Shown: positions 17,484 through 31,207, numbered from the stretch's first letter. The stretch: 41,124 nt of DNA from an uncultured Candidatus Bathyarchaeia archaeon (GCA_964353625.1 CAYGWT010000331.1:1-41124); one strand, 5' to 3'. The notes: a model not told the origin generated them from the letters alone. Made by a program: numbers and translations.

Positions 17484-17799
17484 TGTTGTATCGAAGCAAC
17501 ACTAGTCGTAGGTGTCTGATTTAACAGGCGATGCTTCGTCCCAGACTAGCTGCCCCTCCAAAGACTCAGGGCCGTACTCCATACAGATGTCGCAAAAATC
17601 CAACATCAGTTCTCGCTCTTGTTGCGAAAGTACAACACCACATCCCTTGCAGTGTGTCCGAATTACAACAACCTCCCGGAGTTCTACGTCCTCCTTCCCT
17701 GTAACCGGATCCCAGTGTTGCCGAATTACAACATCCTGTTGTTTTTCTGCAACATCTTGTTGTGTGTTTACAACACCTTCTTGTTGTTTTTGTGCAACA
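17484..17799. promoter_or_regulatory. Array A of the 18-bp palindrome TGTTG-N8-CAACA (six perfect copies plus one degenerate)
   Basis: Perfect copies start at 17484, 17620, 17716, 17737, 17758 and 17782. A degenerate copy (TGTGT...CAACA) starts at 17653. The 17484 copy ends 7 nt from the -35 of the 17448-17476 promoter. The others lie inside ORF 17502..17804. Confidence 0.7.
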
Positions 17800-17804
17800 G
17801 TCAT
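17502..17804 (-). CDS. Hypothetical 100-aa protein with a C-terminal CxxC...CxxC zinc ribbon. Its N-terminal half is encoded by the palindrome array.
   Basis: The ATG overlaps the upstream stop (ATGA) and GGAG lies 8 nt upstream. The C-terminal half contains HCKGCG...FCDIC. The N-terminal half has repetitive QQ(E/D)(G/V)VV(N/I) units caused by the DNA repeats. Confidence 0.45.
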   Translation of the reverse strand: MTVAQKQQEGVVNTQQDVAEKQQDVVIRQHWDPVTGKEDVELREVVVIRTHCKGCGVVLSQQERELMLDFCDICMEYGPESLEGQLVWDEASPVKSDTYD

Positions 17805-18178
17805 TTCTTCTTCTCCTTCAGCGCGGTGTCGATTCGCTCAATGAGCTTGCTTGGCGTATCGGTCGTGTGTCCGTCAAACGTCTGGGACTCAACGACAATC
17901 GGACGCGCCTCCTGCAGCAACTCCCGCAGCCTTTCGTTCTCCGCATCGGCCACATCTCCTCGTTCGCTTGCTAGACGAAGCAACTCCCGCAGTCGTCCAG
18001 CGTCCACGCATGCGTCAATCGACTCCTTGACGAACTTATCTTTAGCGGCAATCTCCGCATGCAGCCTGTCATTCTGTTCTGTCAGTCGCTTGACTGTCTG
18101 TTCCAGTACTTGGTTGTCTCTCAGCAAATCGAAGTAGCCAGGACAGATGTTATCGGCATCCTCTTTATATGTACTCAT
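17801..18178 (-). CDS. Hypothetical coiled-coil protein
   Basis: It has heptad-like, Leu/Glu/Arg-rich sequence (LEQTVKRLTEQNDRLHAEIAAKDKF..., RLRELLRLASERGD...ENERLRELLQEA). GGGGAGG lies upstream of the ATG. Confidence 0.6.
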   Translation of the reverse strand: MSTYKEDADNICPGYFDLLRDNQVLEQTVKRLTEQNDRLHAEIAAKDKFVKESIDACVDAGRLRELLRLASERGDVADAENERLRELLQEARPIVVESQTFDGHTTDTPSKLIERIDTALKEKKK

Positions 18179-19580: not shown

Positions 19581-20188
19581 TAGTCGTATACCTCCTGTGG
19601 ATCCGCATCCTTACACGAATACCACAACAGATCAGCGAAGATAGCCACAAGGTCTCTCTGATCCTTTGGTTGACGAAGGCGGACCTTGATATCCTTCTTC
19701 TTGAGAACCCTGTTTACTGCTCTAGTAAACGAAACAGCATTCATGAGGGCTTTATCTCGATCCGTAATAGCTTCCTGCAATATCCGGATATCGTTTTGCT
19801 GCCTCCAGACTTGTCTCTGTAGGTTAGTGCTACGCTTTTTGTACACCTCTACCAAATAAGCGTCCCCTTTACCTTTAGGTACTTCTACTTCATCCTCTCT
19901 TAGCGGATCCGGAATGAAATACCGTTGTTGGGCGACGCCAGCAAGGAGCTGACCTAAGCCAGGATCCCCTGCGGCCGGAATCGCCTCCCGTACAGGGTTC
20001 ACAGGAACATCTCGCTGATTTGCAAGTTCCTCGAACAGCGCATCCGCGTCGAAAGGTTGTATCGGCTCACGCCGCACCTCTACTCTTGGCCGCTGTGGCA
20101 TGGGGGCAGGCCTTCGTTGCACCCCAAGGATCTCTTCGCGCAATCGTTGCCAATCAACGTTTGGATTTGGGTTATCGGGCATAGGCAT
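19580..20188 (-). CDS. Hypothetical protein
   Basis: It is a 202-aa ORF with a Pro/Arg-rich N-terminus, coupled to both neighbours. I recognise no motif. Confidence 0.55.
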   Translation of the reverse strand: MPMPDNPNPNVDWQRLREEILGVQRRPAPMPQRPRVEVRREPIQPFDADALFEELANQRDVPVNPVREAIPAAGDPGLGQLLAGVAQQRYFIPDPLREDEVEVPKGKGDAYLVEVYKKRSTNLQRQVWRQQNDIRILQEAITDRDKALMNAVSFTRAVNRVLKKKDIKVRLRQPKDQRDLVAIFADLLWYSCKDADPQEVYD

Positions 20189-20924
20189 TCGCTAGCTCCT
20201 TCAAAACGACAGCATACTCCTTTGCCTGTGAGTTGTCAACACCAGGCGCGGTGTTAACCTCGAGGACCAGTAGTTTACCGTCCTTCTTGCTCCGGATGAT
20301 ATCAACAGCACCAAAGTCGAGGCCGACAGCCTGCACTGCTTTGACAGCCAGTTCACGGATACCCTTCGGCTCCTCGATATCGTTCTTGCAGAACACGTAG
20401 CCGTTCCACCACGAGCGAATGTACTGGTCCTTCACTTCCACACCAGCACGCCTCTTCTTCTGCTGGACAAGGAAGGACTTTTCCTTAGTCGCATGGACGC
20501 GGTACTCTGCATCCTTCTGTACGTATTTGACGTACAGCGGGGCCTTGGGCAGCTCCGCATCACCACCCTTCAAGTTCACTATACCTTTTCCCGAATGGGA
20601 AGACAGCAGCTGCCTTGCGAACACCCGATCCCCCTTCTGTAGCCAGAACTTTGCCTCGGCTTTCTCTGGGGTCCACCCGGGTACTGGTACGCCGTGCAAA
20701 CTTAGTTGCTGGAAAGAGCTCAACTTGTTGCTTGCTATATCGGTTGAGGGATTCAGCATGTTCCGCTTGTACTTCGTAGGCGGCGCGGAGGATCCCCAGT
20801 TCACCACCAATGTATGCGCAGCAGGGGCCACAGAGTTCCGAATCATCCTCTTCCAACCCGTAGCGATCGAGATCGCTTTGGCCGATTGGCTGGTTCGATT
20901 GTACGGCCAGATCAGTACTTTCAT
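20172..20924 (-). CDS. ATP-grasp ligase (RimK-like)
   Basis: The pattern includes NKLSSFQQLSLHGVPVP..., SSHSGKGIV, YVQKDAEYRV and LDFGAVDII...LLVLEVNTAPG, which is the typical ATP-grasp C-terminal Mg/ATP motif. Confidence 0.75.
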   Translation of the reverse strand: MKVLIWPYNRTSQSAKAISIATGWKRMIRNSVAPAAHTLVVNWGSSAPPTKYKRNMLNPSTDIASNKLSSFQQLSLHGVPVPGWTPEKAEAKFWLQKGDRVFARQLLSSHSGKGIVNLKGGDAELPKAPLYVKYVQKDAEYRVHATKEKSFLVQQKKRRAGVEVKDQYIRSWWNGYVFCKNDIEEPKGIRELAVKAVQAVGLDFGAVDIIRSKKDGKLLVLEVNTAPGVDNSQAKEYAVVLKELANAYAR

Positions 20925-22294
20925 TGGAACCTCGAGAATTGTTGTTGGATGGCTTGCTTGTCGTGATTGTTGAGGCAGGAAGCTGAGTGTCCTTCGACAC
21001 AGTCTCCGCAGTAGAGCTTGACAAGTGCTCCCTGTCGTACCGCAACAACAGACGCGGGATCACTTTCATCAATGGCTCCTTGGCAGGACCAGCATTGCTG
21101 GGTTCTGCACATCTCTGCCCACTCTCCTTTGGGGAAAGTCTCCCCGCCATAGGTAACAACAGGTTTGTCAGCATTGGTTCCTCCATCTTCGACCTTATCC
21201 CAAACAATCTCACGATAACGAACAGTGTAGGTTGCTGTCTTGGTTTGGAAATCAAGACCAACAGCGACAACCATACCTACCCCGATATCACCCTTGCGTA
21301 CAGTTGTGGCTGACTCGGTGTTCCCAGTAACAAAATGAACCTTGTTACCTTTGACGTCATGACCAGTAAAGTGGCACTGACCATTGATCCATGTCATGTT
21401 ATCCACATGGAACTCGACGTTCTCCCCGATCTCATACTCGCGCTTGATCGAGTCATACGCAGCCTGCCCAACGACTGAACTCGGTGTGTGTGTATACTTG
21501 TACCGGTCATGCCCGCCGTGCGAAGAACCACGATTGAAGTTCGTCAATCCAGCTGGGTAAGCTTGGCCGGTCTTCGCATAGAACTTTGGGCGGTTTCCTT
21601 CGACCACCTCTCCTTCGACCATCTCCAGGGTCTCGACGTCAAATGTATACAGAGTATTGGCTTTGAACGATTTGATGCCTTGAGCTGTATAGATCTTGTT
21701 TCGAGCCGCTAGGTACTCAAGAGCTTCCTTCTCGGACATGATGTAGATCAGGTTGTTCGATTCAAGGTAGTGCAGCTCTCGTTCGTGGTTGCGCAGAATC
21801 TGAATCTGCTTCTTCTTGTTGTCGTACAAGATGATTGCCCAAGCTCCAGACAGATCGCCAATAGCCTCCTTCAGACCCTTCTCGGCAATAGCCTTGACCA
21901 TTCCATGAGAGTCTACCTCGACGTTATGCTCCTTGATATCGAGGCCTGAACGAATGGTCCCATTGTGTACAAGGGTGAACTCGTTCTCCCGGAACGGGTG
22001 AGCGTTCTGCTTATTCACCTTGCCCACAGTTGCCCATCTACCATGGCCGATCAACGCTCGTCCTGCGATCCCCTTGATCTTGAACTTCTCATAGGCCTTG
22101 TCGAACAGCAGATTGACAGATGGGCCTACTGTCTTGACGACTGGGCTTACCGACCCATCTGCGTCCACTGAGAAGCATCCCGATGAATGCCTCCCACGTA
22201 GCTCCGTCAATGTTCCCATCTGGGAGAAGATGTTGAACTCCGGATCGCCCACACCTATCTGGGACTTGTCGATGATTCCGTAGATACCGCACAT
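20921..22294 (-). CDS. Class II (Ntn) glutamine amidotransferase fused to an unassigned Cys-rich C-terminal domain of about 200 aa
   Basis: The start is set at MCGIYGII (nucleophile Cys2) with GGAAAGGAA upstream. GHGRWATVG and HNGTI follow. The C-terminal half (..CRTQQCWSCQG...YCGDCVEGHSASC) has no motif I recognise. Confidence 0.8.
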   Translation of the reverse strand: MCGIYGIIDKSQIGVGDPEFNIFSQMGTLTELRGRHSSGCFSVDADGSVSPVVKTVGPSVNLLFDKAYEKFKIKGIAGRALIGHGRWATVGKVNKQNAHPFRENEFTLVHNGTIRSGLDIKEHNVEVDSHGMVKAIAEKGLKEAIGDLSGAWAIILYDNKKKQIQILRNHERELHYLESNNLIYIMSEKEALEYLAARNKIYTAQGIKSFKANTLYTFDVETLEMVEGEVVEGNRPKFYAKTGQAYPAGLTNFNRGSSHGGHDRYKYTHTPSSVVGQAAYDSIKREYEIGENVEFHVDNMTWINGQCHFTGHDVKGNKVHFVTGNTESATTVRKGDIGVGMVVAVGLDFQTKTATYTVRYREIVWDKVEDGGTNADKPVVTYGGETFPKGEWAEMCRTQQCWSCQGAIDESDPASVVAVRQGALVKLYCGDCVEGHSASCLNNHDKQAIQQQFSRFQ

Positions 22295-22295
22295 G

Positions 22296-23141
22296 TCAGT
22301 TCCTTTCCGCGAAGTAAATCTTAGACCAAAGCACACCCTCTTCCATTGAATTCTGCAGCACAGTGGGAGGGAATATCTGTGCGGTTGCACCAAACACATT
22401 GGTTAGTAGTGCCTGGTACTCTGAGTTGGTGTTGAGTCCGGTTACTGTTCTTTCTACGGCTTCTGCTCCTTGTTTCTTGACGTAGGAATGTAGCTTAACG
22501 ATAAGCTGAATCCATCGCCGAAGCGTTATTGGATCAGCTGTTCCAGCCATATGGCGGAACTCCACAGTCCCAAACTTGGCGATACAGCTACCAACGTTCA
22601 GAGCACAGTACTTCCCTTCATCCCAACCGAAACGAACATCCTGTGGCATGATGTCAGTCAGCGGATAAGCAAAGCCATTAGCCCGCCTATCTTCCGGAAC
22701 CAACGAGAAGAACAGGTTCTCGAATACTGCGTAGAGTCCGATCAATGACCGCAGTTGTTCAAAGCTCCATGCCCTAACGTTGATATGGATGTGTACACTG
22801 CACCGATGAGACCAACGTGGCCTTTGGTCCTTCATTCCGTTTGCCAATTCACGCAAGGCGTAATCGATGTTCTTCCCAGCCACCGGAGTAGAGATCAGTT
22901 CTGCGCCATGATCCTTCAGCGAACCGTCCTTGTCCAGGTTCCAGTAGATACACTTCTGCGGCCACTTTTCTTGCGAGAACCCCTCAACCTCTACTTCGAT
23001 CCCGATTGGAATCTTGTAGCCCGAGAAGAAGGTCTTCAGTTCTTCGGAGTGATAGAACTTAGCTCCTTTCTCCTCGAGAGCACTCTGTAGAGGTAAGGCG
23101 ACTGGTCTTTCAACCAAGCCCCTAACCAGTTTGCTAGCCAT
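22296..23141 (-). CDS. Amidoligase_2-like (GS/GCS-fold COOH-NH2 ligase)
   Basis: The motifs GIEVEVEG, DGSLKDHGAELISTPV, CSVHIHINV and TVEFRHMAGT follow the pattern of the putative amidoligase family. Confidence 0.7.
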   Translation of the reverse strand: MASKLVRGLVERPVALPLQSALEEKGAKFYHSEELKTFFSGYKIPIGIEVEVEGFSQEKWPQKCIYWNLDKDGSLKDHGAELISTPVAGKNIDYALRELANGMKDQRPRWSHRCSVHIHINVRAWSFEQLRSLIGLYAVFENLFFSLVPEDRRANGFAYPLTDIMPQDVRFGWDEGKYCALNVGSCIAKFGTVEFRHMAGTADPITLRRWIQLIVKLHSYVKKQGAEAVERTVTGLNTNSEYQALLTNVFGATAQIFPPTVLQNSMEEGVLWSKIYFAERN

Positions 23142-23728
23142 TAAAGTACCTCCCGCAAGGCATCATACAACTCCTGTTGCACAGTGTTATAGAGAGGGAG
23201 ATGGAAATCCTTCCCGTTACGGGTACCAACCTTCTTCCACATGTAGTGGATATCGGTTGGTCCTAGGAACAGTCGATTGCTAATGGCCCCCCACTCGGCC
23301 AATGCCTGTTCCTTGTCCTTACGTTCGAACACAGGGCGTTGTCCGAACACATCGTGCTTGATCCAGGTATCGTTGGAGATATCACCTGCTCCACGGAAAC
23401 ACTGCCGATCTTTTCTACTGTCGTAGTAATACAGCGTGTGGGTTTGGTGGTTGACTCCAACGTAGAACAGCTTACGATGTTCCCGCACAATACACATATC
23501 TCTGGCGATGTAGCCCGAGGGAACATACTTGTATTGTGGTTCCCAGAGTGAGTAGCCATAGTTCTGGGGAGGCTCTACCAGAGCTGATCCTCTAGCATAA
23601 CCTACCAACGCTGTACCAGTCGCTCCGGTTACAAACACCGTTTGTGCAACACCAGTCTTCACGTTAAGAACCCTGGTCAAGGTGTTGCCAAACTTGCGCA
23701 TGTATGCCGCTGCATCCCACTCCTTCAT
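23141..23728 (-). CDS. Hypothetical protein within the amidoligase cassette
   Basis: It is 195 aa, with a TAATG overlap downstream and an ATGA overlap upstream. I recognise no motif. Confidence 0.55.
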   Translation of the reverse strand: MKEWDAAAYMRKFGNTLTRVLNVKTGVAQTVFVTGATGTALVGYARGSALVEPPQNYGYSLWEPQYKYVPSGYIARDMCIVREHRKLFYVGVNHQTHTLYYYDSRKDRQCFRGAGDISNDTWIKHDVFGQRPVFERKDKEQALAEWGAISNRLFLGPTDIHYMWKKVGTRNGKDFHLPLYNTVQQELYDALREVL

Positions 23729-24507
23729 TGAGGAACCTCCAGGCCGTACTGCTCGATCACCGACTGTGCACCGACCCTATCCCCGCTGTTGATGATCTCG
23801 GGAATGAAGTCCGGCAGGATGATACCCTTCCGCACTTCAGTCAGCATACGATTAACAACACGATACACCCACTCGATACGCTGTTGGGTAGTAGTCCAGA
23901 AGTTGGACGCGGTGCGAAACTCCACACCATAGGGCTTCATACGACACGCCCCTGCCTTGCCGTACAACTCTCGTCGGCGATCGTCCAGATCCACCATCAT
24001 ACCGGGCAGCGTGATGTACATATCCGCAGCACGGACAACAGTGAACATATCTTCCGGTTTGAAGTACTCGAAACCGAAATGCAGATGCCCGCCAGCCGAG
24101 CGAAGGAACGGGTTAGCCGCAGCAGGCCGAGGATTCCACTCCTTCGTATACGCATTGAGATCAGGATCACAACCCATGATCCATGCCCGATCATCCTGCA
24201 GTTCCGATTGAGGGAACACCACACTCGGCACGATGTGGACAGCAAGGCCCATCTGTCCAGCCGCATCTTCGATCAGATCACGCGCCGTGACGTTGCGATC
24301 AACCCACTCGTGCATACTTTGGGCAGGAGTGATGCCGTACTCGACGGCGCAGTTGTCCACTTGCACCGAGACCTCATTGGTCAGGGGCACGGGTTGGTCT
24401 TTCGTTCCATTGAACTTGTCAATTGCGGACACCGGCTCATTGGTGTACACAGAACGAAGGAACCATTCGGGATCACACCCGATCAGAAACTTAGGCGAGA
24501 TTGACAT
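23725..24507 (-). CDS. Second COOH-NH2 ligase-like protein (phiEco32-type, type 2)
   Basis: The N-terminal MSISPKFLIGCDPEWFL and later GGHLHFG are reminiscent of the phage COOH-NH2 ligase type 2 family. The start is set to ATG 24507. Confidence 0.55.
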   Translation of the reverse strand: MSISPKFLIGCDPEWFLRSVYTNEPVSAIDKFNGTKDQPVPLTNEVSVQVDNCAVEYGITPAQSMHEWVDRNVTARDLIEDAAGQMGLAVHIVPSVVFPQSELQDDRAWIMGCDPDLNAYTKEWNPRPAAANPFLRSAGGHLHFGFEYFKPEDMFTVVRAADMYITLPGMMVDLDDRRRELYGKAGACRMKPYGVEFRTASNFWTTTQQRIEWVYRVVNRMLTEVRKGIILPDFIPEIINSGDRVGAQSVIEQYGLEVPQ

Positions 24508-25096
24508 TGAGTTTGTCCTTGATAAGGGAACGAACGTACTGCGAGAAAGGGCTGTCCTTGTCAAGATACTCCGGGTGTCCTTGAACACCAAGCGAGTTAG
24601 TATCTTTCCAATAAACTACTTCTGCTTCTGGTTCACTGCATAGGGTTTTACCATCCGCATTTTCCTTTTCAAGGGAAAGAATATCCTTCGCCCAAGCTAG
24701 TAATTCACCACCAAAGGGGCGCATCATTTGATGGTGTGTCGAAGTAACTACGAATTCAGTATTACTACTCGTAGTAACCATATGGCTTCGGCCATGGTTC
24801 TTGACATTCTGCCATAGCTTGCCACCATTCATTGCACAGAGGAACTGTGCCCCCCTGCATATCCCAAGCATCGGGATTTTCAACTCAAGTGCTCGGAGAA
24901 AGATAGGCACTTCGATTGCATCCCTATCCGGATCAGAATAGGATGCGACGTTCTTCTCATGATACAGGGCGGGGTCAATATCAGCACCACCCCAGAAGAT
25001 GAGTAGATCCATCCGTTCTTCAACGTGCAGTGGATGGAGCACGTGTTTCGCTGCGCCGAAGTACGGATTGAACTCCACTACAGATCCGATTCTCAC
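24491..25096 (-). CDS. Class I glutamine amidotransferase / peptidase C26 (gamma-glutamyl hydrolase, PuuD-like)
   Basis: It contains LGICRGAQFL (nucleophile elbow) and GVQGHPEY (catalytic His). A GTG start at 25096 overlaps the upstream TAG, with GGAG 7 nt upstream. Confidence 0.75.
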   Translation of the reverse strand: MRIGSVVEFNPYFGAAKHVLHPLHVEERMDLLIFWGGADIDPALYHEKNVASYSDPDRDAIEVPIFLRALELKIPMLGICRGAQFLCAMNGGKLWQNVKNHGRSHMVTTSSNTEFVVTSTHHQMMRPFGGELLAWAKDILSLEKENADGKTLCSEPEAEVVYWKDTNSLGVQGHPEYLDKDSPFSQYVRSLIKDKLNVNLA

Positions 25097-26136
25097 TAGA
25101 CTTCTCCTCGTTCGTAGTGCCCGTAGTTCGGATCCCATCCATCATACACCCGATAGACAAGATCAGCTACAGCATTGTGCTCTTTCGCCGCATAGTTGGC
25201 GTTGCCTTGACGTAGATCTGCACGAAGGGCATTCAGTGCCTTGCCTAGTCTGTCCTCCTTGAAACGCCCCTTAGCATCACGAGGCATCTTGGCGGCGTGG
25301 GCCTTCAGTTTCTCACGGATGGCTCGCTTCTTTTTCAGATGCTGCTCATACCGATCAAGATCCCTGTGGAGCATATCAACTTCGTTCGGCACCTTCGCAG
25401 GGGGCTTAGCTACAGGCTTGGGTTCATCTGGGATAATGGGCAGATGGAAATGTTCACCGACCGCATACTCCCGAGGCGCATCCAACTGGCCTACAGTTTG
25501 CCCTCGTTGCCAGTACGAACCAGCACCTGAAGCACACCCCTTCATCTCCGCCATGCACTTGACCGCATCGAGGCGACGAAGCTTCTCGATAGGCACACCG
25601 ATAGGCACACCATCTGCAGGAGGTAGCTTGGCACGAAGGATATCCGTGATATACGCAAGCCCGTGTCCGTAGCTGTTATAGAACCAGCCACCATCATTGC
25701 GATAGTTTTCAGGGCTGCCGCTGCCACCAGCACGCCAAGCCATACCAACGATCGTAGCCATCGGATCGATCTTGTTCTCCATCATGTACTTAAAACAAAA
25801 CGGGTACGTTTTGTAGTACTCAAGAGGCTGTCGCAGCAGCGTGACGGCAAACACAAGTTGGCCGTAAGACCACTCCGGAGTCTGCCAATACCCGTTCGGC
25901 AGTACCGTGATCTGGAGGATCCTCTCAAGATGATCACGCCACTGATGGTAGTCCGCCTCCTCGGTAGAGCGAGGATTCTTCCGGTTAGCGAACCACTTGT
26001 GCTCCACACCAAACACAAATGATTGTGGGGCTGCTCGATCATACGGGGATCCCGTTCTCGCATAACTAAATACCCCTGCGGAACAGGCAGTGGATTTACC
26101 ATCCGCAGTAAGTAGATTGATGATCGGATTACCCAT
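25096..26136 (-). CDS. Hypothetical 346-aa protein at the head of the amidoligase cassette
   Basis: It is a long clean ORF with a basic coiled-coil C-terminal third. I recognise no motif. Confidence 0.6.
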   Translation of the reverse strand: MGNPIINLLTADGKSTACSAGVFSYARTGSPYDRAAPQSFVFGVEHKWFANRKNPRSTEEADYHQWRDHLERILQITVLPNGYWQTPEWSYGQLVFAVTLLRQPLEYYKTYPFCFKYMMENKIDPMATIVGMAWRAGGSGSPENYRNDGGWFYNSYGHGLAYITDILRAKLPPADGVPIGVPIEKLRRLDAVKCMAEMKGCASGAGSYWQRGQTVGQLDAPREYAVGEHFHLPIIPDEPKPVAKPPAKVPNEVDMLHRDLDRYEQHLKKKRAIREKLKAHAAKMPRDAKGRFKEDRLGKALNALRADLRQGNANYAAKEHNAVADLVYRVYDGWDPNYGHYERGEV

Positions 26137-26774: not shown

Positions 26775-27083
26775 TTAGATCTCCGTCTCTGAGTTAGGCT
26801 CTTGTTTGATGACAGCCAGCTCTGCCTCAATCGGCAATACCAGATCATTATGAGGACACGACAAGATCAGGCCGTCTGAAAGACGAACGATTGAGCGCGT
26901 TTTCCCGTCTCTCTTCAGCAACGCCGCATCACCGGCTGAGAGGGAACACTTCATCCAGTGTTCAGTTGGACACTTCACGGTGTTAGTCGTCTGATTGACC
27001 AACAGGAACACAGAACCGTAGCTCAAGGTAGACAGCCGCTTGTACAGGCTCGGTCCGTCCCGAGTGATGTATGTTGTATTCAT
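26775..27083 (-). CDS. Hypothetical protein
   Basis: The start is moved to MNTTYITRDG (ATG 27083), with AAGGAGG 7 nt upstream and a TAATG overlap with the upstream stop. Confidence 0.55.
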   Translation of the reverse strand: MNTTYITRDGPSLYKRLSTLSYGSVFLLVNQTTNTVKCPTEHWMKCSLSAGDAALLKRDGKTRSIVRLSDGLILSCPHNDLVLPIEAELAVIKQEPNSETEI

Positions 27084-27451
27084 TACCACGCCTCCTTGAG
27101 ATTGAAACAAAACGCAGTGACATCGTTGCCACTGTTTGGGTTACGCTCCGTACCCAACTCCTGACTAGCAGGTAGCCGACGAAGCAGCGACAGGACTTGA
27201 CGATAATGGAGATCCCTCTGGGTTGGTAGTCCCGGAGACTGCGGAATAAAAAAGAAACAGAAGGTCTTGTTCGCACGAATCGCGGCGATGATACTCTTCT
27301 CGACACGCTTCGGCCAAGACTGGCAGTTTTGGAACGCCAACGTACCTTCCACCGCAGCACAGCAAGCGAGGTACCTAATTGTGCCGTAGTCGTTGTTGAA
27401 CTTGGCCCTGTATTTCGCAGGCAACTTTTCATACGCTTTATAGTAGTTCAT
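27083..27451 (-). CDS. Hypothetical 122-aa protein. Its ATG is fused to a TTTACT-N6-AGTAAA motif.
   Basis: The minus strand reads TTTACTGGAGCTAGTAAATG at the start. Confidence 0.6.
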   Translation of the reverse strand: MNYYKAYEKLPAKYRAKFNNDYGTIRYLACCAAVEGTLAFQNCQSWPKRVEKSIIAAIRANKTFCFFFIPQSPGLPTQRDLHYRQVLSLLRRLPASQELGTERNPNSGNDVTAFCFNLKEAW

Positions 27452-27468
27452 TTACTAGCTCCAGTAAA
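27451..27468 (-). promoter_or_regulatory. Start-associated palindrome, copy S1
   Basis: The minus strand reads TTTACT-GGAGCT-AGTAAA followed by TG (ATG of 27083..27451). Confidence 0.65.
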
Positions 27469-27496
27469 AAAAGCCGGGGACCCGCCTGCCCCGGGC
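27466..27496 (-). terminator. Rho-independent terminator (minus strand)
   Basis: The minus strand reads CCGGGGcaggcgggtCCCCGGcTTTTTTT. The T-run merges into motif S1. Confidence 0.5.
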
Positions 27497-27700
27497 ACTG
27501 TCGCAGACGAGAGCTGCGATACCATCAGGTTAAATGGTAACGGGTCTTAACCTTGCGCGGTTACGTCTCCGGCGTCCTGCCTCCAGACCGTGTTTGTTCC
27601 AATGGACTCACCACTTCAGAGTCAGAACAAGTAACTCGCCATGGCCTCTTGTCCATTGCCTATCATAAGGGGATGCAACGGCTCCTGCTATCTGCTGGCT
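27466..27700 (-). ncRNA. Candidate non-coding RNA of about 230 nt (promoter to terminator, with no ORF)
   Basis: It lies in the 357-bp stretch between genes 27809.. and ..27451, which has no credible ORF. A promoter-like element lies at 27706-27735 and a terminator at 27466-27496. Several stems are visible (CAATGGAC/GTCCATTG, AGGTTAA/TTAACCT, CGCAG/CTGCG). Confidence 0.25.
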
Positions 27701-27705
27701 GCATC

Positions 27706-27735
27706 AGCATACCACAAAGTCTAGCAAGTAATCAA
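27706..27735 (-). promoter_or_regulatory. Possible sigma70-type promoter (minus strand)
   Basis: The minus strand reads TTGATT-18 nt-TATGCT with TGg giving an extended -10. The -35 overlaps the palindrome ATCAAGttctCTTGAT. Confidence 0.35.
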
Positions 27736-27808
27736 GAGAACTTGATAAGAGCCTATCCTTGTGGGAGAGCAATAGCCCAGTGTTCAGCACTAGGAACTGT
27801 AGAAGCAG

Positions 27809-28045
27809 TTAGAAGTCCCAAACATCGAGACGACTAGGGGCGGCCTTGTACCCCTCGCAGGTGTTGGCGGGCACTTGTTCACCGACCTTGCTCAAACCTT
27901 TTGGCGGGTCAGCCTTAATGCCCAATCGAACAAATGCTTCGGCGATATGCTGAGGGTTGAACGCTCTCCCCTCGAACCACTCTTTGAGAGCCTTCGCCTG
28001 ATGAGAATGTAACGTGGTGAAGTCTTGGGTTTGACAGTAGCACAT
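27809..28045 (-). CDS. Hypothetical small early protein
   Basis: The protein-like frame reads ..DFTTLHSHQAKALKEWFEGRAFNPQHIAEAFVRLGIKADPP... ATG 28045 is preceded by GGAGAGG. The ORF-track start at 28072 is a TTG with no SD. Confidence 0.5.
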   Translation of the reverse strand: MCYCQTQDFTTLHSHQAKALKEWFEGRAFNPQHIAEAFVRLGIKADPPKGLSKVGEQVPANTCEGYKAAPSRLDVWDF

Positions 28046-28101
28046 GATACCTCTCCGTTGAGTTGTTGCCAAGCGTTGTATTCCGAAAGTCGCGGCATAG
28101 T

Positions 28102-28119
28102 TTTACTCCGCTTAGTAAC
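28102..28119 (-). promoter_or_regulatory. Start-associated palindrome, variant copy S7
   Basis: The minus strand reads GTTACT-AAGCGG-AGTAAA followed by ACTATG (ATG 28098, which opens a different frame from the gene above). Confidence 0.4.
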
Positions 28120-28393
28120 CCCAACGCGGGTTAATCGGGATCAGCGAGAACTCATGCCAGTCGAAGCCACAGTTCTTCGCCGCGTGTTCGAAGTCCTCAT
28201 GCGTGAGGACAGGCCTGCCGTGACGATCCTTGCCGGTAGGTACAGCGAGGACTTGGATGCCGTTGTCGATCAGGCACTTGTGTGCTGATTCAGCATCATC
28301 GAACTTCATCTCGTACACTTGCTGCTCCCCTTTCTTGCGGAAGCGCAGGATAGAGCGGAAGCCTTGCTGCTTGAAAGGTGCGGTCAGTCTCAT
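28112..28393 (-). CDS. Hypothetical 93-aa early protein
   Basis: The ATG is fused to motif S2. Confidence 0.6.
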   Translation of the reverse strand: MRLTAPFKQQGFRSILRFRKKGEQQVYEMKFDDAESAHKCLIDNGIQVLAVPTGKDRHGRPVLTHEDFEHAAKNCGFDWHEFSLIPINPRWGY

Positions 28394-28410
28394 TTACTAT
28401 CTCCAGTAAA
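28393..28410 (-). promoter_or_regulatory. Start-associated palindrome, copy S2
   Basis: The minus strand reads TTTACT-GGAGAT-AGTAAA followed by TG. The stop codon of the upstream gene (TAG) directly precedes it. Confidence 0.65.
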
Positions 28411-28662
28411 CTACGGGTTGAGGATATCAAACTCAACCGACAGAGTGCCAACCACATCCGAGTGGTTGATCTGTGCGTTGGCTTGCCGGAAGGCGGTGAT
28501 TTGCTTTTCCGCCCAAGACTCGATAAGGGCCAGTGGAGTGGAGTCCTTGAACGTCTCCCGCAACGTGAACAGTGTCATCTTACGGACGCGGGCCTTGTTT
28601 TGCCCATCGCCGAAGAACACCCACATCCAGATCACCAACTTAGCTCCAACGAAGCGCGACAT
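28411..28662 (-). CDS. Hypothetical 83-aa early protein
   Basis: The ATG is fused to motif S3. Confidence 0.6.
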   Translation of the reverse strand: MSRFVGAKLVIWMWVFFGDGQNKARVRKMTLFTLRETFKDSTPLALIESWAEKQITAFRQANAQINHSDVVGTLSVEFDILNP

Positions 28663-28679
28663 TTACTATCTCCAGTAAA
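28662..28679 (-). promoter_or_regulatory. Start-associated palindrome, copy S3
   Basis: The minus strand reads TTTACT-GGAGAT-AGTAAA followed by TG. It is preceded by a small hairpin GGGCgttaGCCC. Confidence 0.65.
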
Positions 28680-28712
28680 AGGGCTAACGCCCGCTTTGTT
28701 CACCGACCCTCG

Positions 28713-28745
28713 AAAAAAAGAGGGCTGGCCGAAGCCAACCCCCTC
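28713..28745 (-). terminator. Rho-independent terminator with a UUCG tetraloop (minus strand)
   Basis: The minus strand reads GAGggGGTTGGCttcgGCCAGCCCTCTTTTTTT, 12 nt after the stop of 28758..29522. Confidence 0.65.
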
Positions 28746-28757
28746 ACCAGCCGACGA

Positions 28758-29522
28758 TCACTCGGCCGCGTTGATGATGCTCAGCGCTTTGGTCAGGTAC
28801 GCTTTCGCCTTGACTTTGCCCATACGCTTGAGCAGACTCGCCGCGAAACCTGCCGCCGATTCAGCCAGATCCTCACGCGCCTTGACCGCGAATTCGGACG
28901 CGGCTTTCTTAGCGGCGCGCGCTTTCAGCTTCTCGACTTGCGCAGGCGAGTGCCCGAGCGTCAGAGCGGCATCCGCGATCTTATCCTCGGCACGCGAGAC
29001 CGCCTTGGCCAGCTTCGCCGCTTCCCGCTCCGCGACAGGCTTGATCGCTTCGCCGGTGCGCCAATTGATCGGCGCATCGCCTTGCGTCAGACGCGATCGC
29101 GCCTCGGCTACCAACGATTCATTGTTGGTATAACTTGCGACTTCCGCCGCCGTCATGCGACCCCGGTAGACTGCGCCGAACACTGCCCGAACGTAGGCCG
29201 CGAATTTCCGCGCCTCATCCGTTGTCGCGCCATCTTGCCATTTGTCGTCGCCGTCTTTCGAGCGCGTACCTTGAATCAGGCCAGCCAGAGCCGAATCGAA
29301 CTGCTCCAGACCCGCTTCGCCGAGTTGCTCCGCGACTCCGACGCCCGTCATTGCCGTATCCCGGATCAGGACACACTTGGCACCAGCGGCATCCGCCGCG
29401 ATGTTTCTGTACCGCTCGAAACTCGGTTCGATCGCTTGCGCAGTGATCAGAACCGCGACTTTCACTTCCGCTTTCTTGACAGGCTCCAGCTTGCCTGCCA
29501 CTACCGCGAGCGTTGCGCTCAT
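28758..29522 (-). CDS. Hypothetical Ala-rich 254-aa protein, the first gene of the leftward early transcript, in a locally GC-rich segment
   Basis: It is a clean ORF whose ATG is fused to motif S4. Hand counts of individual 60-nt lines give about 65% GC here, versus about 43-50% in typical lines elsewhere. Confidence 0.65.
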   Translation of the reverse strand: MSATLAVVAGKLEPVKKAEVKVAVLITAQAIEPSFERYRNIAADAAGAKCVLIRDTAMTGVGVAEQLGEAGLEQFDSALAGLIQGTRSKDGDDKWQDGATTDEARKFAAYVRAVFGAVYRGRMTAAEVASYTNNESLVAEARSRLTQGDAPINWRTGEAIKPVAEREAAKLAKAVSRAEDKIADAALTLGHSPAQVEKLKARAAKKAASEFAVKAREDLAESAAGFAASLLKRMGKVKAKAYLTKALSIINAAE

Positions 29523-29540
29523 TTTACTGCTCCCAGTAAA
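29523..29540 (-). promoter_or_regulatory. Start-associated palindrome, copy S4
   Basis: The minus strand reads TTTACT-GGGAGC-AGTAAA followed by ATG. Confidence 0.65.
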
Positions 29541-29594
29541 CCCGAGGAACCCGCCTCGCCGGTATCGGTGCTTGTTTCTGCATCCGATGTAGCC

Positions 29595-29623
29595 ATTCTA
29601 CGCTTCGTTTGCCTGCCCGTCAA
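29595..29623 (-). promoter_or_regulatory. Sigma70-type promoter for the leftward early operon
   Basis: The minus strand reads TTGACG-ggcaggcaaacgaagcg-TAGAAT, with a 17-nt spacer. It lies about 70 nt upstream of ATG 29522. Confidence 0.6.
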
Positions 29624-29634
29624 CCCCCCCCCCC
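29624..29634. repeat. Homopolymer C11 (G11 on the minus strand) abutting the -35 element
   Basis: The plus strand reads caaCCCCCCCCCCCgCCCCg. The minus strand reads GGGGcGGGGGGGGGGGttgacg. Confidence 0.9.
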
Positions 29635-29641
29635 GCCCCGC

Positions 29642-29659
29642 TTTACTAGACCTAGTAAA
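29642..29659. promoter_or_regulatory. Palindrome copy S5 (no ORF attached), upstream of the early promoter
   Basis: TTTACTAGGTCTAGTAAA has perfect 8-bp arms (TTTACTAG/CTAGTAAA). It lies 18 nt upstream of the -35 at 29618-29623. Confidence 0.6.
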
Positions 29660-29833
29660 CTCGGGAAGATCCGCCGCTGACCCACGCGACAGCATCAGCC
29701 TAAACTTCAGCTGACAGGCAAATTGTAGCACGGGCAATGCCGGCAGTGGTTGTTGCCACGCAACGTTGTTTCTGCGCCACTTGACAAGGCCTTGGAATTG
29801 TGTTAACCGACCTTGTGAGTGAGCACTCACTAA

Positions 29834-29851
29834 CCTACTAAGCGTAGTAAA
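29834..29851. promoter_or_regulatory. Palindrome copy S6 (variant, no credible ORF attached)
   Basis: The plus strand reads CCTACT-AAGCGT-AGTAAA. It lies next to a second palindrome, GTGAGTGagCACTCAC, at 29815-29830. Confidence 0.45.
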
Positions 29852-29866
29852 CTCGCAACAAGGGGT

Positions 29867-30281
29867 TGTTGTAAGAAAGCAACAAATGTCTGGACTACGG
29901 GCGAGCGCAAGGTATTGTTGTATTTACGCAACAGCTCGCCCCTAAAAGTATATGCTCGCTTAGAATGATTCTTATTCAGACCCCCCGGGTGGGGGGAAAA
30001 GTCCGGGCTTTAGTCCGTGCGAAAGGGTGCTTCGCACAATGCGCACGCTTTTTTGAAACAGGGTCTCCGGTTTAGCGGAGCTAAACTGGCAGTGAAGCTC
30101 TGCTTCACCGCATAGACTGTTGTATTTTTACAACAGTTCTTACAGAAGTGTTGTATTTTTACAACAAAGTGTTGTTTTTTTGCAACATGTACCCACGAAG
30201 TGTTGTATTTTCGCAACACTTTTGAGTGGGTGATCCCGCAAAAGCGGGATTTAGTCCCGAAACTGTTGCTTTTTTGCAACA
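29867..30281. promoter_or_regulatory. Array B of the 18-bp palindrome TGTTG-N8(9)-CAACA (seven copies)
   Basis: Copies start at 29867, 29916, 30117, 30148, 30169 (N9), 30201 and 30264. The spacers are T-rich (TATTTTTA twice, TATTTTCG, CTTTTTTG). The last copy ends 15 nt before the -35 at 30297. Confidence 0.75.
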
Positions 30282-30296
30282 GATTTCGAGACATAC

Positions 30297-30325
30297 TTGA
30301 CAAAATCAAAAAAATATGCTATAAT
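30297..30325 (+). promoter_or_regulatory. Perfect-consensus extended -10 sigma70 promoter for the rightward arm
   Basis: The sequence is TTGACA-aaatcaaaaaaatatgc-TATAAT, with a 17-nt spacer and TGc immediately upstream of the -10. Confidence 0.75.
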
Positions 30326-30484
30326 GAAAACAGTAGTAGCAAGTTTACGAAGCTACAGTGTGGGCAAGGCCCACTGTGGATGTAACTGTTACTGTAGCTG
30401 AGTAACTTGCGTAGAAAGATCTTCCTCCGATAGGAGGCTGACTTACTGAAAGCACTGTTTTCATCCCGATTGGAGCGGAGGACT
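30326..30484 (+). promoter_or_regulatory. Structured 5' leader of about 150 nt
   Basis: There is a long interrupted hairpin at 30337-30413 (9 bp AGCTACAGT/ACTGTAGCT, plus 4 bp and 5 bp extensions). An apical GTGGGC-aag-GCCCAC stem and a CCTCC-gata-GGAGG hairpin (30424-30437) are also present. GAAAACAGT (30326-34) is complementary to ACTGTTTTC (30454-62). Confidence 0.45.
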
Positions 30485-31207
30485 ATGCTCACTGACGTAG
30501 AGAGGTTGAAGGACCGAGAGGCTAAGAAAAGGGTTCCAGGAGGTTGGTTCTCCGACAAACAGAAGCTCGAGGCTGTGCAGATGTGGCTCATCACCGGGTC
30601 AATGCCAGCTACCGCTGCTGCCCTGAACATAAACGTTAGCACGATTGAGAAGTGGAGATATACTGACTGGTGGAAGGAACTCTCTGACCAGATCAAGGCT
30701 GAGGGGAGGGTTAAGCTCTCCGGTAGGCTGCAGAAGATCGTTGGCCGGACCTTGGACCAGCTGGAGGACAGGATCGAGAATGGTGACTTCATCCTGGATA
30801 GCAAGACTGGGCAGATCGTCCGTAAGCCACTGATGGCCAGGGACCTGACCCGAATCACCACAGATTTCATGGCTTCCAGCCAAAAGCTGGAATCCGTAAC
30901 CAAAGAGGAAGCTACTGTCCAGGCTATCGAAGACCGGTTGAAGCTCATCGCCGAGAACTTTGCTTCCTTCGCCAAGAAGGTCAGGAAAGTGGAGGTGGAG
31001 GATTTGACACATGTGGAGCAACTGTCTGTTCTGGGCACTGAGGCAGAGGTTATCGAAGGGGGGACACCTCCTTATCGGGAGGAGCCCGGGGACACTGATC
31101 CTCAGGACCTACTGGATGGATCCGGAGAAGAGGATCTGGTACTTCGCCCCGCTGAGACCGAGGAAAGCCCCACTGTCCTACTTCCACAAGTTCCTGTTCA
31201 AGGGTAG
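30485..31207 (+). CDS. HTH protein, probably a terminase small subunit (Sf6 gp1-like N-terminal HTH); could alternatively be a regulator
   Basis: ATG 30485 is preceded by GGAGCGGAGG. The N-terminal DKQKLEAVQMWLITGSMPATAAALNINVSTIEKWR looks like a helix-turn-helix, followed by a coiled-coil oligomerisation-like region and an acidic tail. Confidence 0.5.
   Translation: MLTDVERLKDREAKKRVPGGWFSDKQKLEAVQMWLITGSMPATAAALNINVSTIEKWRYTDWWKELSDQIKAEGRVKLSGRLQKIVGRTLDQLEDRIENGDFILDSKTGQIVRKPLMARDLTRITTDFMASSQKLESVTKEEATVQAIEDRLKLIAENFASFAKKVRKVEVEDLTHVEQLSVLGTEAEVIEGGTPPYREEPGDTDPQDLLDGSGEEDLVLRPAETEESPTVLLPQVPVQG

Follow-up and report, generated by a model that had tools for sequence, protein, structure and literature searches.

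What is a perfect palindrome doing at the translation starts of the earliest genes of a phage? The question is raised by a stretch of 41,124 nucleotides (nt) assigned to an uncultured Candidatus Bathyarchaeia archaeon (GCA_964353625.1, CAYGWT010000331.1:1-41124; G+C content 51.7%), hereafter the window, which looks like the complete or near-complete genome of a podovirus-like phage with two divergent arms. At the head of its leftward (minus-strand) arm a motif of the form TTTACT-N6-AGTAAA carries the Shine-Dalgarno (SD) sequence GGAG in its spacer and runs into the start codon. An original prediction, made from this sequence alone, had noticed the motif and proposed either an RNA hairpin acting on translation or an 18 base pair (bp) DNA operator, leaning toward DNA; these are still the two leading readings, but the balance now tilts toward RNA. 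We favour, with a probability of roughly 40%, a phage-specific RNA operator, a weak hairpin in the mRNA through which translation of the earliest genes would be shut off in a coordinated way.

The exact motif occurs at five sites in the window, compared with a mean of 0.00 in 100 dinucleotide shuffles. The original prediction had reported five matches to all 12 fixed positions, against a chance expectation of about 0.002 per 41 kb; both the coordinates (27451-27468, 28393-28410, 28662-28679, 29523-29540 and 29642-29659) and the arithmetic (41124/4^12) are correct. Four of these copies are fused to starts on the minus strand. The copy TTTACT-GGGAGC-AGTAAA at 29523-29540 is followed directly by the ATG (29522) of gene 1 (254 amino acids (aa), 28758-29522). 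For the remaining three the last A of the 3' arm doubles as the A of the ATG: TTTACT-GGAGAT-AGTAAA at 28662-28679 starts gene 2 (83 aa, 28411-28662); the same sequence at 28393-28410 starts gene 3 (93 aa, 28112-28393) and makes up the entire junction from the TAG stop of gene 2 to the ATG of gene 3; and TTTACT-GGAGCT-AGTAAA at 27451-27468 starts a 122-aa gene (27083-27451) that was also called in an independent assembly. All four start-fused copies read GGAG-N7-ATG, and three copies have TAG and TAA in frame just 5' of the ATG. Two of them lie close to hairpins that resemble intrinsic terminators. The gene-2 copy is 3' of one such hairpin with its T-run (28718-28745, minus strand), at the 3' side of gene 1, and also 18 nt 3' of a linear motif, GGTCGGTGAAC; the copy of the 122-aa gene abuts another (27477-27492, minus strand), whose T-run enters its 5' arm. 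The fifth exact copy, TTTACTAG-GT-CTAGTAAA at 29642-29659, has 8-bp arms and no open reading frame (ORF) attached, and it ends 18 nt before the -35 element of the predicted early leftward promoter (TTGACG-17-TAGAAT, a sigma-70-type match at 29595-29623 on the minus strand). A second ORF-less site, TTTACT-ACGCTT-AGTAGG at 29834-29851, is a variant with 2 mismatches, forming two T.G wobbles on the minus strand. Both ORF-less sites are as the original prediction had described them.

Other parts of that description need to be revised. The motif had been placed at four consecutive gene starts; there are four such starts, but they are not strictly consecutive, as a gene starting at 28098, with a 1-mismatch copy, and another starting at 28045, with no copy, lie between the starts at 28393 and 27451. 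Nor is the motif limited to the first 2.4 kb or so of the leftward transcript and absent from the rest of the window, as had been thought. The 1-mismatch copy, GTTACT-AAGCGG-AGTAAA-ACT-ATG at 28102-28119 (minus strand), overlaps the TAA stop of gene 3, with a GGAG that begins in the spacer, ends in the 3' arm and stands 7 nt before that gene's ATG (28098); this start is backed by synonymous changes with respect to a relative (L015, described below), as read from the two sequences. Copies with 2 mismatches are found within a 346-aa ORF, 24 nt past its ATG (26095-26112), and within the glutamine amidotransferase gene (GTTACTA-CGAG-TAGTAAT, 24761-24778). Copies with shorter spacers are found within a 202-aa ORF (TTTACT-AGAGC-AGTAAA with an N5 spacer, 19713-19729) and within the DnaB-like helicase gene (TTTACTA-C-TAGTAAA with an N3 spacer, the geometry of L015, 16959-16973).

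Counted in this broader way, the window contains 9 matches with no more than 2 mismatches to TTTACT-N6-AGTAAA where 0.88 are expected, and 7 matches to TTTACT-N0-8-AGTAAA where 0.007 are expected. The approximately 18 kb of the rightward arm are free of copies, the 11 being confined to the leftward arm and its control region (0.55^11 = 0.0014), and 5 of the 11 end 0-3 nt before a start codon, compared with 0.07 expected (p ~1e-8). The remaining gene starts of both arms are free of the motif and have ordinary GGAG or AGGAG sites. Stem positions 2, 4, 5, 6, 14 and 15 are invariant, and outside the 18-20 nt of the element the copies have no similarity to each other. The registration of the palindrome to SD and ATG is not forced by shortage of space, because 65 to 340 nt of non-coding DNA are available (approximately 65 nt upstream of gene 1, 95 nt upstream of gene 2 and 340 nt upstream of the 122-aa gene). 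A scan of IMG/VR with the exact motif (TTTACTGGAGNTAGTAAATG) returned a single match, in a 575-aa ORF of an unrelated contig, which we attribute to chance since it is present in one copy only.

The reading that we favour can be stated as a sequence of events. The palindrome would be transcribed as part of the early leftward mRNAs, probably by the host sigma-70 RNA polymerase from the promoter at 29595-29623, and the RNA would fold into a weak hairpin with a 7-bp stem and a 4-nt loop (UUUACUG-GAGA-UAGUAAA), in which the loop and the closing pair carry the SD, and the last base of the stem is the A of the AUG or lies 1-3 nt before it. By itself this hairpin would be too weak to block ribosomes, and the earliest genes would be translated immediately after infection. 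Later a putative phage protein would read the stem, clamp the hairpin and hide both SD and AUG, shutting off or tuning the earliest genes as a group; the copies away from starts might serve as leader or in-mRNA sites, as extra or titrating ones. The first genes of an infection cannot wait for an activator made by the phage, so that a repressor acting later would be the simplest logic. That RNA and not DNA is read, that a protein reads it, and that the effect is repressive are all steps that we infer.

Folding predictions are consistent with these steps. All five exact copies form the 7-bp/4-nt hairpin in both the local minimum-energy and the centroid folds, and in three of them the stem ends on the A of the AUG. 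Three of the five have G.U as the seventh pair, one has G-C and one A-U; of the copies with an N6 spacer, 8 of 10 have one of these three types there. For example, the gene-1 copy at 29523-29540 has a local minimum-energy fold with a 7-bp stem, a G-C closing pair and the loop GGAG; across copies, the loops seen are GAGC, GAGA, GGAG, GGTC and CGCT. The original prediction had placed the SD in the spacer or loop: it is in the spacer, but in the predicted fold its first G is paired (G.U or G-C) and the loop itself is GAG(A/C). The 60-nt contexts of the copies are no more stable than shuffled sequences, which indicates that the hairpin alone should not stop ribosomes. We also looked at departures from Watson-Crick pairing on the sense strand, where 7 are G.U and 1 to 3 are A.C; as a test of which strand is read, this excess is suggestive but falls short of significance.

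The relatives of this phage, to which we refer by locus number where they must be told apart, provide the key evidence on the arms. The original prediction had named conservation of GGAG-N7-ATG alone as an outcome that would refute it, and the relatives do not bring this refutation: they keep the palindrome, co-vary it or replace it by another. A search of 5.8 billion proteins gave only two relatives of the first early protein (254 aa). In L014, whose protein is 82% identical, the start reads TTTACT-AGGCGG-AGTAAA-AA-ATG: the arms are kept, the spacer is altered, the ATG is shifted by two bases, and GGAG lies across the boundary between spacer and arm. In L015, whose protein is 50% identical, the palindrome is TTCACT-N3-AGTGAA in all three copies, a T-to-C change in the left arm being matched by an A-to-G change in the right arm; this is the kind of compensatory change for which the original prediction had suggested looking. 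One L015 copy, TTCACT-ATT-AGTGAA-T-GGAGG, stands 1 nt before the GGAGG of gene 2, a second is in the leader of gene 1 at a position homologous to the window copy at 29642, and a degenerate copy occupies a position homologous to that at 29834. Over an alignment of 14 copies, 92.9% of the cells are paired, and pair 3-16 is U-A in 11 copies and C-G in the 3 copies of L015; the covariation score is 0.242, compared with 0.162 in shuffles, and only 1 of 500 shuffles reaches that value. Gene 2 is swapped for an unrelated gene in L015, and the gene 2/gene 3 and gene 3/gene 4 junctions of that phage consist of plain overlapping stop and start codons where the window has the palindrome.

In more distant relatives, to which the terminase led, the same arm bears unrelated palindromes, which often touch SD or ATG. 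L002 has GGTATGTA-GAT-TACATACC, with one copy upstream of the early promoter region and a second that ends 6 nt before the GGAG of gene 2. L038 has TTTAACA-AGGAG-TGTTAAA-A-ATG, plus an in-ORF copy with a 4-nt spacer, and L037 has CTTAAC-GAG-GTTAAG-AA-ATG in a single copy, which taken alone is not significant. Two-copy palindromes occur in the control region or in leaders of L039, L066 and L079. When we searched for recurrent perfect palindromes in 27 related loci, clear families were seen only in L002, L015, L017, L038, L039, L066, L079 and in loci of the L087 type; many two-copy families found by this search are noise, and many of the contigs stop short of the early region. In some more distant relatives, a perfect 12-bp palindrome, GTTACTAGTAAC, has the same TTACT/AGTAA core as the arms of the window but no spacer; it is found at 8505, 10103, 14230, 17168 and 18255 of L087, at 4155, 10103 and 15049 of L089, and at 4731 and 5563 of L095. 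Its copies, 3 to 5 per 21 kb, are spread over both arms and fall within ORFs, that of the terminase among them, so that this palindrome is not start-associated.

Another of the distant relatives is Alcaligenes phage vB_Af_QDWS535, which has 10 exact and 5 one-mismatch sites of the form TCCTAA-YR-TTAGGA (TCCTAAYRTTAGGA). The 20-kb structural arm has none of the 15, which are all found within the 28-kb leftward arm or the control region. Four of them end 6-9 nt before annotated starts, with the AGGA of the 3' arm serving as SD (0.27 expected, p ~2e-4); others are 17-46 nt upstream of starts, directly past stops, inside ORFs or in the ORF-less control region, and one copy stands just before a terminator. 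Overall, the SD is in the spacer in the window and L038, in the 3' arm in L014 and the Alcaligenes phage, and just after the palindrome in L015 and L002, while the distance from hairpin to ATG ranges from 0 to 46 nt. In the window and in its relatives, the SD is always within the stretch that the 30S ribosomal subunit covers. Taken together, these comparisons indicate that the clade carries start-associated palindromes, each specific to its phage.

The arms are identical within a genome and different between genomes, and the copies are unlike each other beyond 18-20 nt; from this combination a sequence-specific, phage-encoded reader that co-evolves with its sites appears well supported by the sequence comparisons, and neither a structure valued for pairing only nor recent duplication fits it. 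This bears on an explanation that needs no reader, in which the palindrome is a cis-acting, portable start cassette, spread with the gain of genes by recombination: the SD would stay accessible in the hairpin loop, 30S subunits would bind more readily thanks to the U-rich and A-rich arms, and ribosomes coming from upstream would be halted by the TAG-TAA before the ATG. The in-frame stops of three copies and the turnover of genes between copies (the replacement of gene 2 and the plain junctions of L015) agree with it, as does the fact that A/U-rich flanks of the SD are a general feature of strong start sites. We nonetheless consider a cassette of this kind distinctly unlikely. An element valued only for its structure should drift, whereas the arms do not vary within the genome and the same compensatory change is present in all three copies of L015. 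The copies are not recent segmental duplicates; the ORF-less copies (29642, 29834) and those within ORFs (16959, 19713) would have no role; and in the Alcaligenes phage the UCCU of the 5' arm pairs with the AGGA of the SD and thus hides it, which is the opposite of presenting it.

If there is a reader, the main question becomes whether it reads RNA or double-stranded DNA. A dimeric phage protein could bind the 18-bp palindrome in the DNA and either switch off the early operon or block elongation through it, through a loop between copies on both sides of the promoter or as a roadblock where genes join, in the manner of cluster A stoperators; repressors with many junction sites that block elongation within transcription units are known from that system (PMC9283540). 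We rate this explanation as unlikely but serious, and much of what speaks for it also weighs against an RNA operator. The 6-6-6 layout is typical of the sites of helix-turn-helix dimers, with arms that do not vary and a spacer that is free to do so. A fixed stem with a variable loop is the reverse of what most readers of RNA hairpins recognize, and calls to mind a protein that reads DNA through the major groove. In the Alcaligenes phage the 14 bp of the site form a perfect palindrome that continues across the centre, where the middle step is Y-R; such complementarity would serve no purpose in a loop and is what duplex DNA sites typically show. The copy with perfect 8-bp arms at 29642-29659 has its centre at approximately -62.5 from the inferred start of leftward transcription, and the gene-1 copy is centred at approximately +56.5, a spacing that resembles that of the gal operators at -60.5 and +53.5; similarly, a variant at 17856 of the Alcaligenes phage is at approximately -82.5 from a TTGATT-17-TATAAT promoter. 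Both 29642 and 29834 lie upstream of the predicted leftward promoter, and no further leftward promoter was found upstream of them by promoter prediction in the window. This point is softened by the Alcaligenes phage, in which a perfect TTGACA-17-TATAAT promoter (L017, 18605..18577) is upstream of the ORF-less copies, and by a -10-like TACAAT/TACTAT that the window and L015 have in common upstream of the copy at 29642. About half of the copies are away from starts, the relation of SD to hairpin varies between phages (loop, arm or downstream), and no RNA-binding or other candidate reader was found with PHROGs, Pfam and fold searches. Finally, the excess of G.U pairs becomes 8 versus 3, and loses significance (p ~0.11), once a doubtful Alcaligenes site is counted.

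Other observations are difficult to reconcile with a DNA operator. Nothing at the DNA level explains why the palindrome should overlap SD and ATG to the nucleotide when so much non-coding DNA is at hand, and this is the reason why we weigh the RNA operator above it. Spacer lengths are N6, N5 and N3 within the window, N5 and N4 within L038, and they change from N6 to N3 between the window and L015, close relatives with almost the same half-site, in which the distance between half-sites is shifted by 3 bp; on duplex DNA this corresponds to a rotation of approximately 100 degrees of one half-site with respect to the other. A change of spacer with the arms kept is easy for the loop of a hairpin and hard for a rigid dimer on duplex DNA, and it tilts the balance toward a hairpin. 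In L002, the promoter of gene 2 already bears its own operator-like palindrome over the -35 element, and one has to go approximately 50 nt farther downstream, to the ribosome-binding site, to find the phage-specific palindrome. The early ORFs, compared with PHROGs and Pfam, gave no DNA-binding protein.

Moreover, the window shows in a second family what its DNA operators may look like. TGTTGY-N6-RCAACA, which also has a 6-6-6 layout, is present in 13 copies in two control regions, 6 copies between 17484 and 17799 and 7 copies between 29867 and 30281; it is conserved in L015 and L002, and one L002 copy overlaps a -35 element. This family has the appearance of a classical operator array that would serve a conserved DNA-binding regulator. 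The TTTACT family differs from this promoter-clustered pattern: its copies are scattered, one to a gene start, and its sequence is specific to the phage. A 100-aa ORF at 17502-17804 is made doubtful by the cluster at 17.5-17.8 kb.

RNA could also be read for a purpose other than translation. The hairpin might be the boxB-like half of an antitermination site, with GGTCGGTGAAC as boxA, or a signal for processing by an endoribonuclease or for mRNA stability. The linear motif, which is conserved throughout the clade, precedes the hairpin by 8-18 nt in the window (28708 to 28679), in L015 and at two Alcaligenes sites, and at a third Alcaligenes site it is 1 nt after the hairpin; there are terminators inside the early operon, several Alcaligenes copies are directly past stops with one just before a terminator, and two loops are GAGA, of the GNRA type. 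We nevertheless judge such a role improbable. Five to 15 copies per genome are many for nut-like sites, the copy past the gene-1 terminator comes too late for read-through of that terminator, and most copies of the GGTCGGT motif are in ORFs, at intervals of about 1 kb and with no hairpin around them. No N-like protein and no nuclease candidate was identified in searches of the window. In lambda, the nut site consists of a linear boxA and a boxB hairpin that work with the N protein, and it lies 3' of the early promoters and 5' of the terminators that are read through. In the window and its relatives the linear motif and the hairpin are neighbours at a few sites, and each element is alone at most of its copies. 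The window shares with it a phage-specific hairpin near a conserved linear motif in early transcripts with terminators, and differs in copy number, in placement at ribosome-binding sites and after terminators, and in having the linear motif mostly alone in ORFs.

The linear motif merits a description of its own. The minus strand has 10 copies of GGTCGGT(G/T/A)A(A)C and the plus strand has none, when approximately 2.5 are expected per strand; the first bases of the copies are at 29812, 28708, 27887, 26657, 25462, 23776, 22155, 19240, 15098 and 4879. In the early region the copies are approximately 0.8-1.7 kb apart, and they often lie within ORFs. Counted on the leftward arm's sense strand, the Alcaligenes phage has about 9 copies of a counterpart, GGTCGATCAT, while L059 has 10 of GGTCTGTCAT, L063 has 5 of GGTCGGTCAT (as a 9-mer count) and L002 has 5 of GGTCGGTG. 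These motifs could be nick, priming or Chi-like sites, or a phage-specific promoter.

One further candidate role was tried and rejected, namely that the palindromes are single-stranded DNA hairpin promoters of the N4 type, used by a T7-like RNA polymerase packaged in the virion. The early region of N4 has as its promoters hairpins with stems of 5-7 bp and a 3-nt loop, whose centre is at -11, and RNA starts approximately 5 nt past the stem (PMC4496689). The window has in common with N4 several inverted repeats of 5-8 bp in the early region of a podovirus, with a sequence that varies from phage to phage, and L015 and L002 have the 3-nt loops of N4; the difference is that SD and ATG are in or beside the hairpin here. 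The window also encodes a 1928-aa protein of the virion arm (102-5888) with a partial match to phrog_2206, 'virion RNA polymerase' (residues 779-977, E = 1.4e-9). This match is weak, and the protein has no match in Pfam and none among solved structures in the PDB, including the N4 mini-vRNAP. Transcripts started in this way would begin at or after the ATG and lose the GGAG that is held 7 nt from it; in L015 the start would land inside GGAGG. Distances of 0-46 nt between hairpin and ATG, loops of 4-6 nt in the window and the presence of good sigma-70-type promoters likewise disagree with it, and only a very slim chance is left for this mechanism.

Returning to the RNA operator, which protein could be its reader? 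A comparison of the early ORFs and of the small ORFs of the left arm with PHROGs and Pfam identified no nucleic-acid-binding family, and homologues of the early ORFs were undetectable in the distant relatives. The AlphaFold model of the first early protein is all helical (predicted local distance difference test score, pLDDT, of 72), and a Foldseek comparison of the model with the PDB gave nothing better than E = 0.3. Homologue searches with genes 1 and 3 yielded only the two relatives, both on short contigs, so that a co-varying reader cannot be sought by comparison of whole genomes. The only helix-turn-helix protein encoded beside the control region, at 30470-31207, was considered as a regulator and rejected: it is located directly before an HNH gene and the gene for the large terminase (TerL) in most relatives, and is probably the small terminase.

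The genome around the palindromes has a simple layout. The leftward arm extends from approximately 29.5 kb down to 7.2 kb and opens with about ten small orphan genes, which are followed by a cluster of glutamine amidotransferase, amidoligase and ATP-grasp genes, a primase and a DnaB-like helicase; a split family-A DNA polymerase, an exonuclease and a ribonucleotide reductase are also encoded in this arm. The rightward (plus-strand) arm runs from 30.4 kb through the end of the window and on to approximately 7 kb, and its products include the large terminase, the portal, the major head protein and the 1928-aa protein. The region between the arms contains two strong and divergent sigma-70-type promoter matches, that for the leftward arm given above and TTGACA-17-TATAAT at 30297-30325 on the plus strand for the rightward arm; the -10 hexamer of the leftward promoter is conserved in L014 together with a TGACAG -35 element. 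By large terminase, the nearest deposited genomes are those of an uncultured Manatee Spring phage (MW202796.1, 50%) and of the Alcaligenes phage (OK172329.1, 56%), both with the same two-arm layout as the window. A DNA search of the early region against the INPHARED phage collection was without match. The amidotransferase/ligase cluster at 20172-25138, in which a glutamine amidotransferase, a COOH-NH2 ligase, an amidoligase, a class-II amidotransferase and an ATP-grasp-like protein can be recognized, is present also in the Alcaligenes phage and in several metagenomic relatives.

Several features of the early and control regions are worth recording. A tract at 29624-29634, between the ORF-less palindrome and the early -35 element, consists of 11 G when read on the minus strand (of C on the plus); it is slippage-prone and possibly a weak point of the assembly. 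Beyond the palindrome, approximately 450 nt between the divergent promoters (29660-30100) are non-coding and conserved with L015 in blocks, even though the neighbouring gene is only 50% identical in L015; the blocks include AGACCYTGTTTC, CTTTCGCACG, a CCCCCC-ACC-GGGGGG hairpin, TTAGTGAGTNCTCACT and GGTCGGTTAACACAATTC...TGTCAAGTGGCGC, and the region could act as an origin, mark a genome end, or form a structured leader or RNA. On the minus strand at 27470-27808 another non-coding stretch of approximately 340 nt has a promoter-like TTGATT-17-TATGCT and the terminator at its end (27492-27477), and could encode a small RNA; Rfam and tRNA scans of the window gave no match. Sequences that resemble tRNAs, in a reading by eye, are present among the early genes of L002. 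At 27809-28098, also on the minus strand, a 68-aa ORF with its ATG at 28098 overlaps a 78-aa ORF of another frame with its ATG at 28045. In the 28098 frame the first 16 codons are conserved with L015 through synonymous changes (RLSEY.AW.QL), and in the 28045 frame conservation with L015 is found farther along; a frameshift, an upstream ORF or genuinely overlapping genes are possible.

How do these palindromes compare with known systems? The closest described phenomenon is that of the start-associated sequences (SAS), together with the extended start-associated sequences (ESAS), of cluster K mycobacteriophages, and the original prediction was apt in invoking it. The SAS is an asymmetric 13-mer, GGGATAGGAGCCC, which contains GGAG and is located 3-8 bp upstream of start codons; the ESAS, just upstream of the SAS, are imperfect 17-bp inverted repeats with a spacer of 4-13 bp and a consensus that differs by subcluster, and in some K4 phages the right repeat ends on the very base that opens the start codon (PMC3203893, PMC12699233). 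Start-associated repeats of phage genomes have been catalogued since 2011, and their function was still unknown in 2025 (PMC3203893, PMC12699233). The two systems are alike in having start-tied repeats at a subset of genes, in the non-structural half only, and with GGAG. The element of the window is nevertheless not a member of SAS/ESAS, but the same kind of thing in a simpler and sharper form: its motif is palindromic and shares only GGAG with the SAS; its inverted repeats, like the ESAS, have a lineage-specific sequence and a variable spacer, but their arms, of 6-8 bp, are perfect and enclose or abut the SD, whereas the ESAS precede a separate SAS; and it belongs to a lytic-looking podovirus-like clade, unlike the temperate siphoviruses of Mycobacterium.

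In its proposed working, the element would be closest to the hairpin operators of MS2 and to the T4 RegA regulon, but it lacks the features that define them, namely recognition through the loop for the former, and unstructured sites and a RegA homologue for the latter. The MS2/R17 coat protein-replicase operator is a small hairpin that extends from about -17 to +1 of the start codon and hides the start when it is bound; the coat protein reads loop and bulge bases and tolerates changes in the stem. The predicted hairpin of the window resembles it by including SD and/or start codon, and differs from it by having a fixed stem and a variable loop. RegA represses about 30 early mRNAs of T4 by competing with the ribosome at the start region, through sites that are unstructured and A/U-rich, and with a specificity that differs between T4 and RB69 (PMC3014915). 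The original prediction had drawn on RegA too, and there the analogy is good for function only: the sites of the window are structured palindromes, many of them off starts, and neither RegA nor a coat protein was seen to have a homologue among the window proteins scanned. The targets of the T4 nuclease RegB, GG*AGRAYARAA, are also at early start regions (PMC3014915); GGAGATAGTAA matches them only in GGAG, the next purine and the final AA, and copies that lack GGAG retain the arms. RegA and RegB are in any case precedents for post-transcriptional shut-off of early genes at start regions of the GGAG type (PMC3014915). With respect to DNA-level control, the stoperators of cluster A phages (L5, Bxb1, TipsytheTRex) are asymmetric 13-mers of temperate phages, bound by a monomeric immunity repressor and oriented with transcription (PMC9283540). 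They are similar to the palindromes of the window in having many copies over part of the genome, often at junctions and inside transcription units, with a phage-specific sequence that in the stoperators co-evolves with the repressor, and dissimilar in that the latter are palindromic and registered to SD and ATG. Neither a repressor nor an integrase was detected among the ORFs scanned.

The observation of phage-specific palindromes at early starts is robust and general across the clade, and it is the mechanism that we infer. The case is unusually clean, with a perfect palindrome that has SD and ATG built in, a compensatory change in a close relative, and replaced palindromes in distant ones. 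It is conceivable, though we consider this doubtful, that across the clade, whose phages are mostly uncultivated, a dedicated, fast-evolving protein reads a hairpin at the ribosome-binding sites of the earliest genes, with an operator geometry like that of MS2, and that operator and reader co-evolve such that each phage has its own code. Such a clade-wide reader would amount to a global shut-off of early translation in double-stranded DNA phages, and would provide the first mechanistic model for start-associated repeats such as SAS and ESAS. Because vB_Af_QDWS535 is cultured and has a known host, whether RNA or DNA is read, and by what, is directly testable. If RNA is read, the palindromes would represent a new class of phage translational regulators and a source of orthogonal hairpin-protein pairs for synthetic biology; if DNA is read, stoperator-like control would be extended to lytic phages of Gram-negative hosts.

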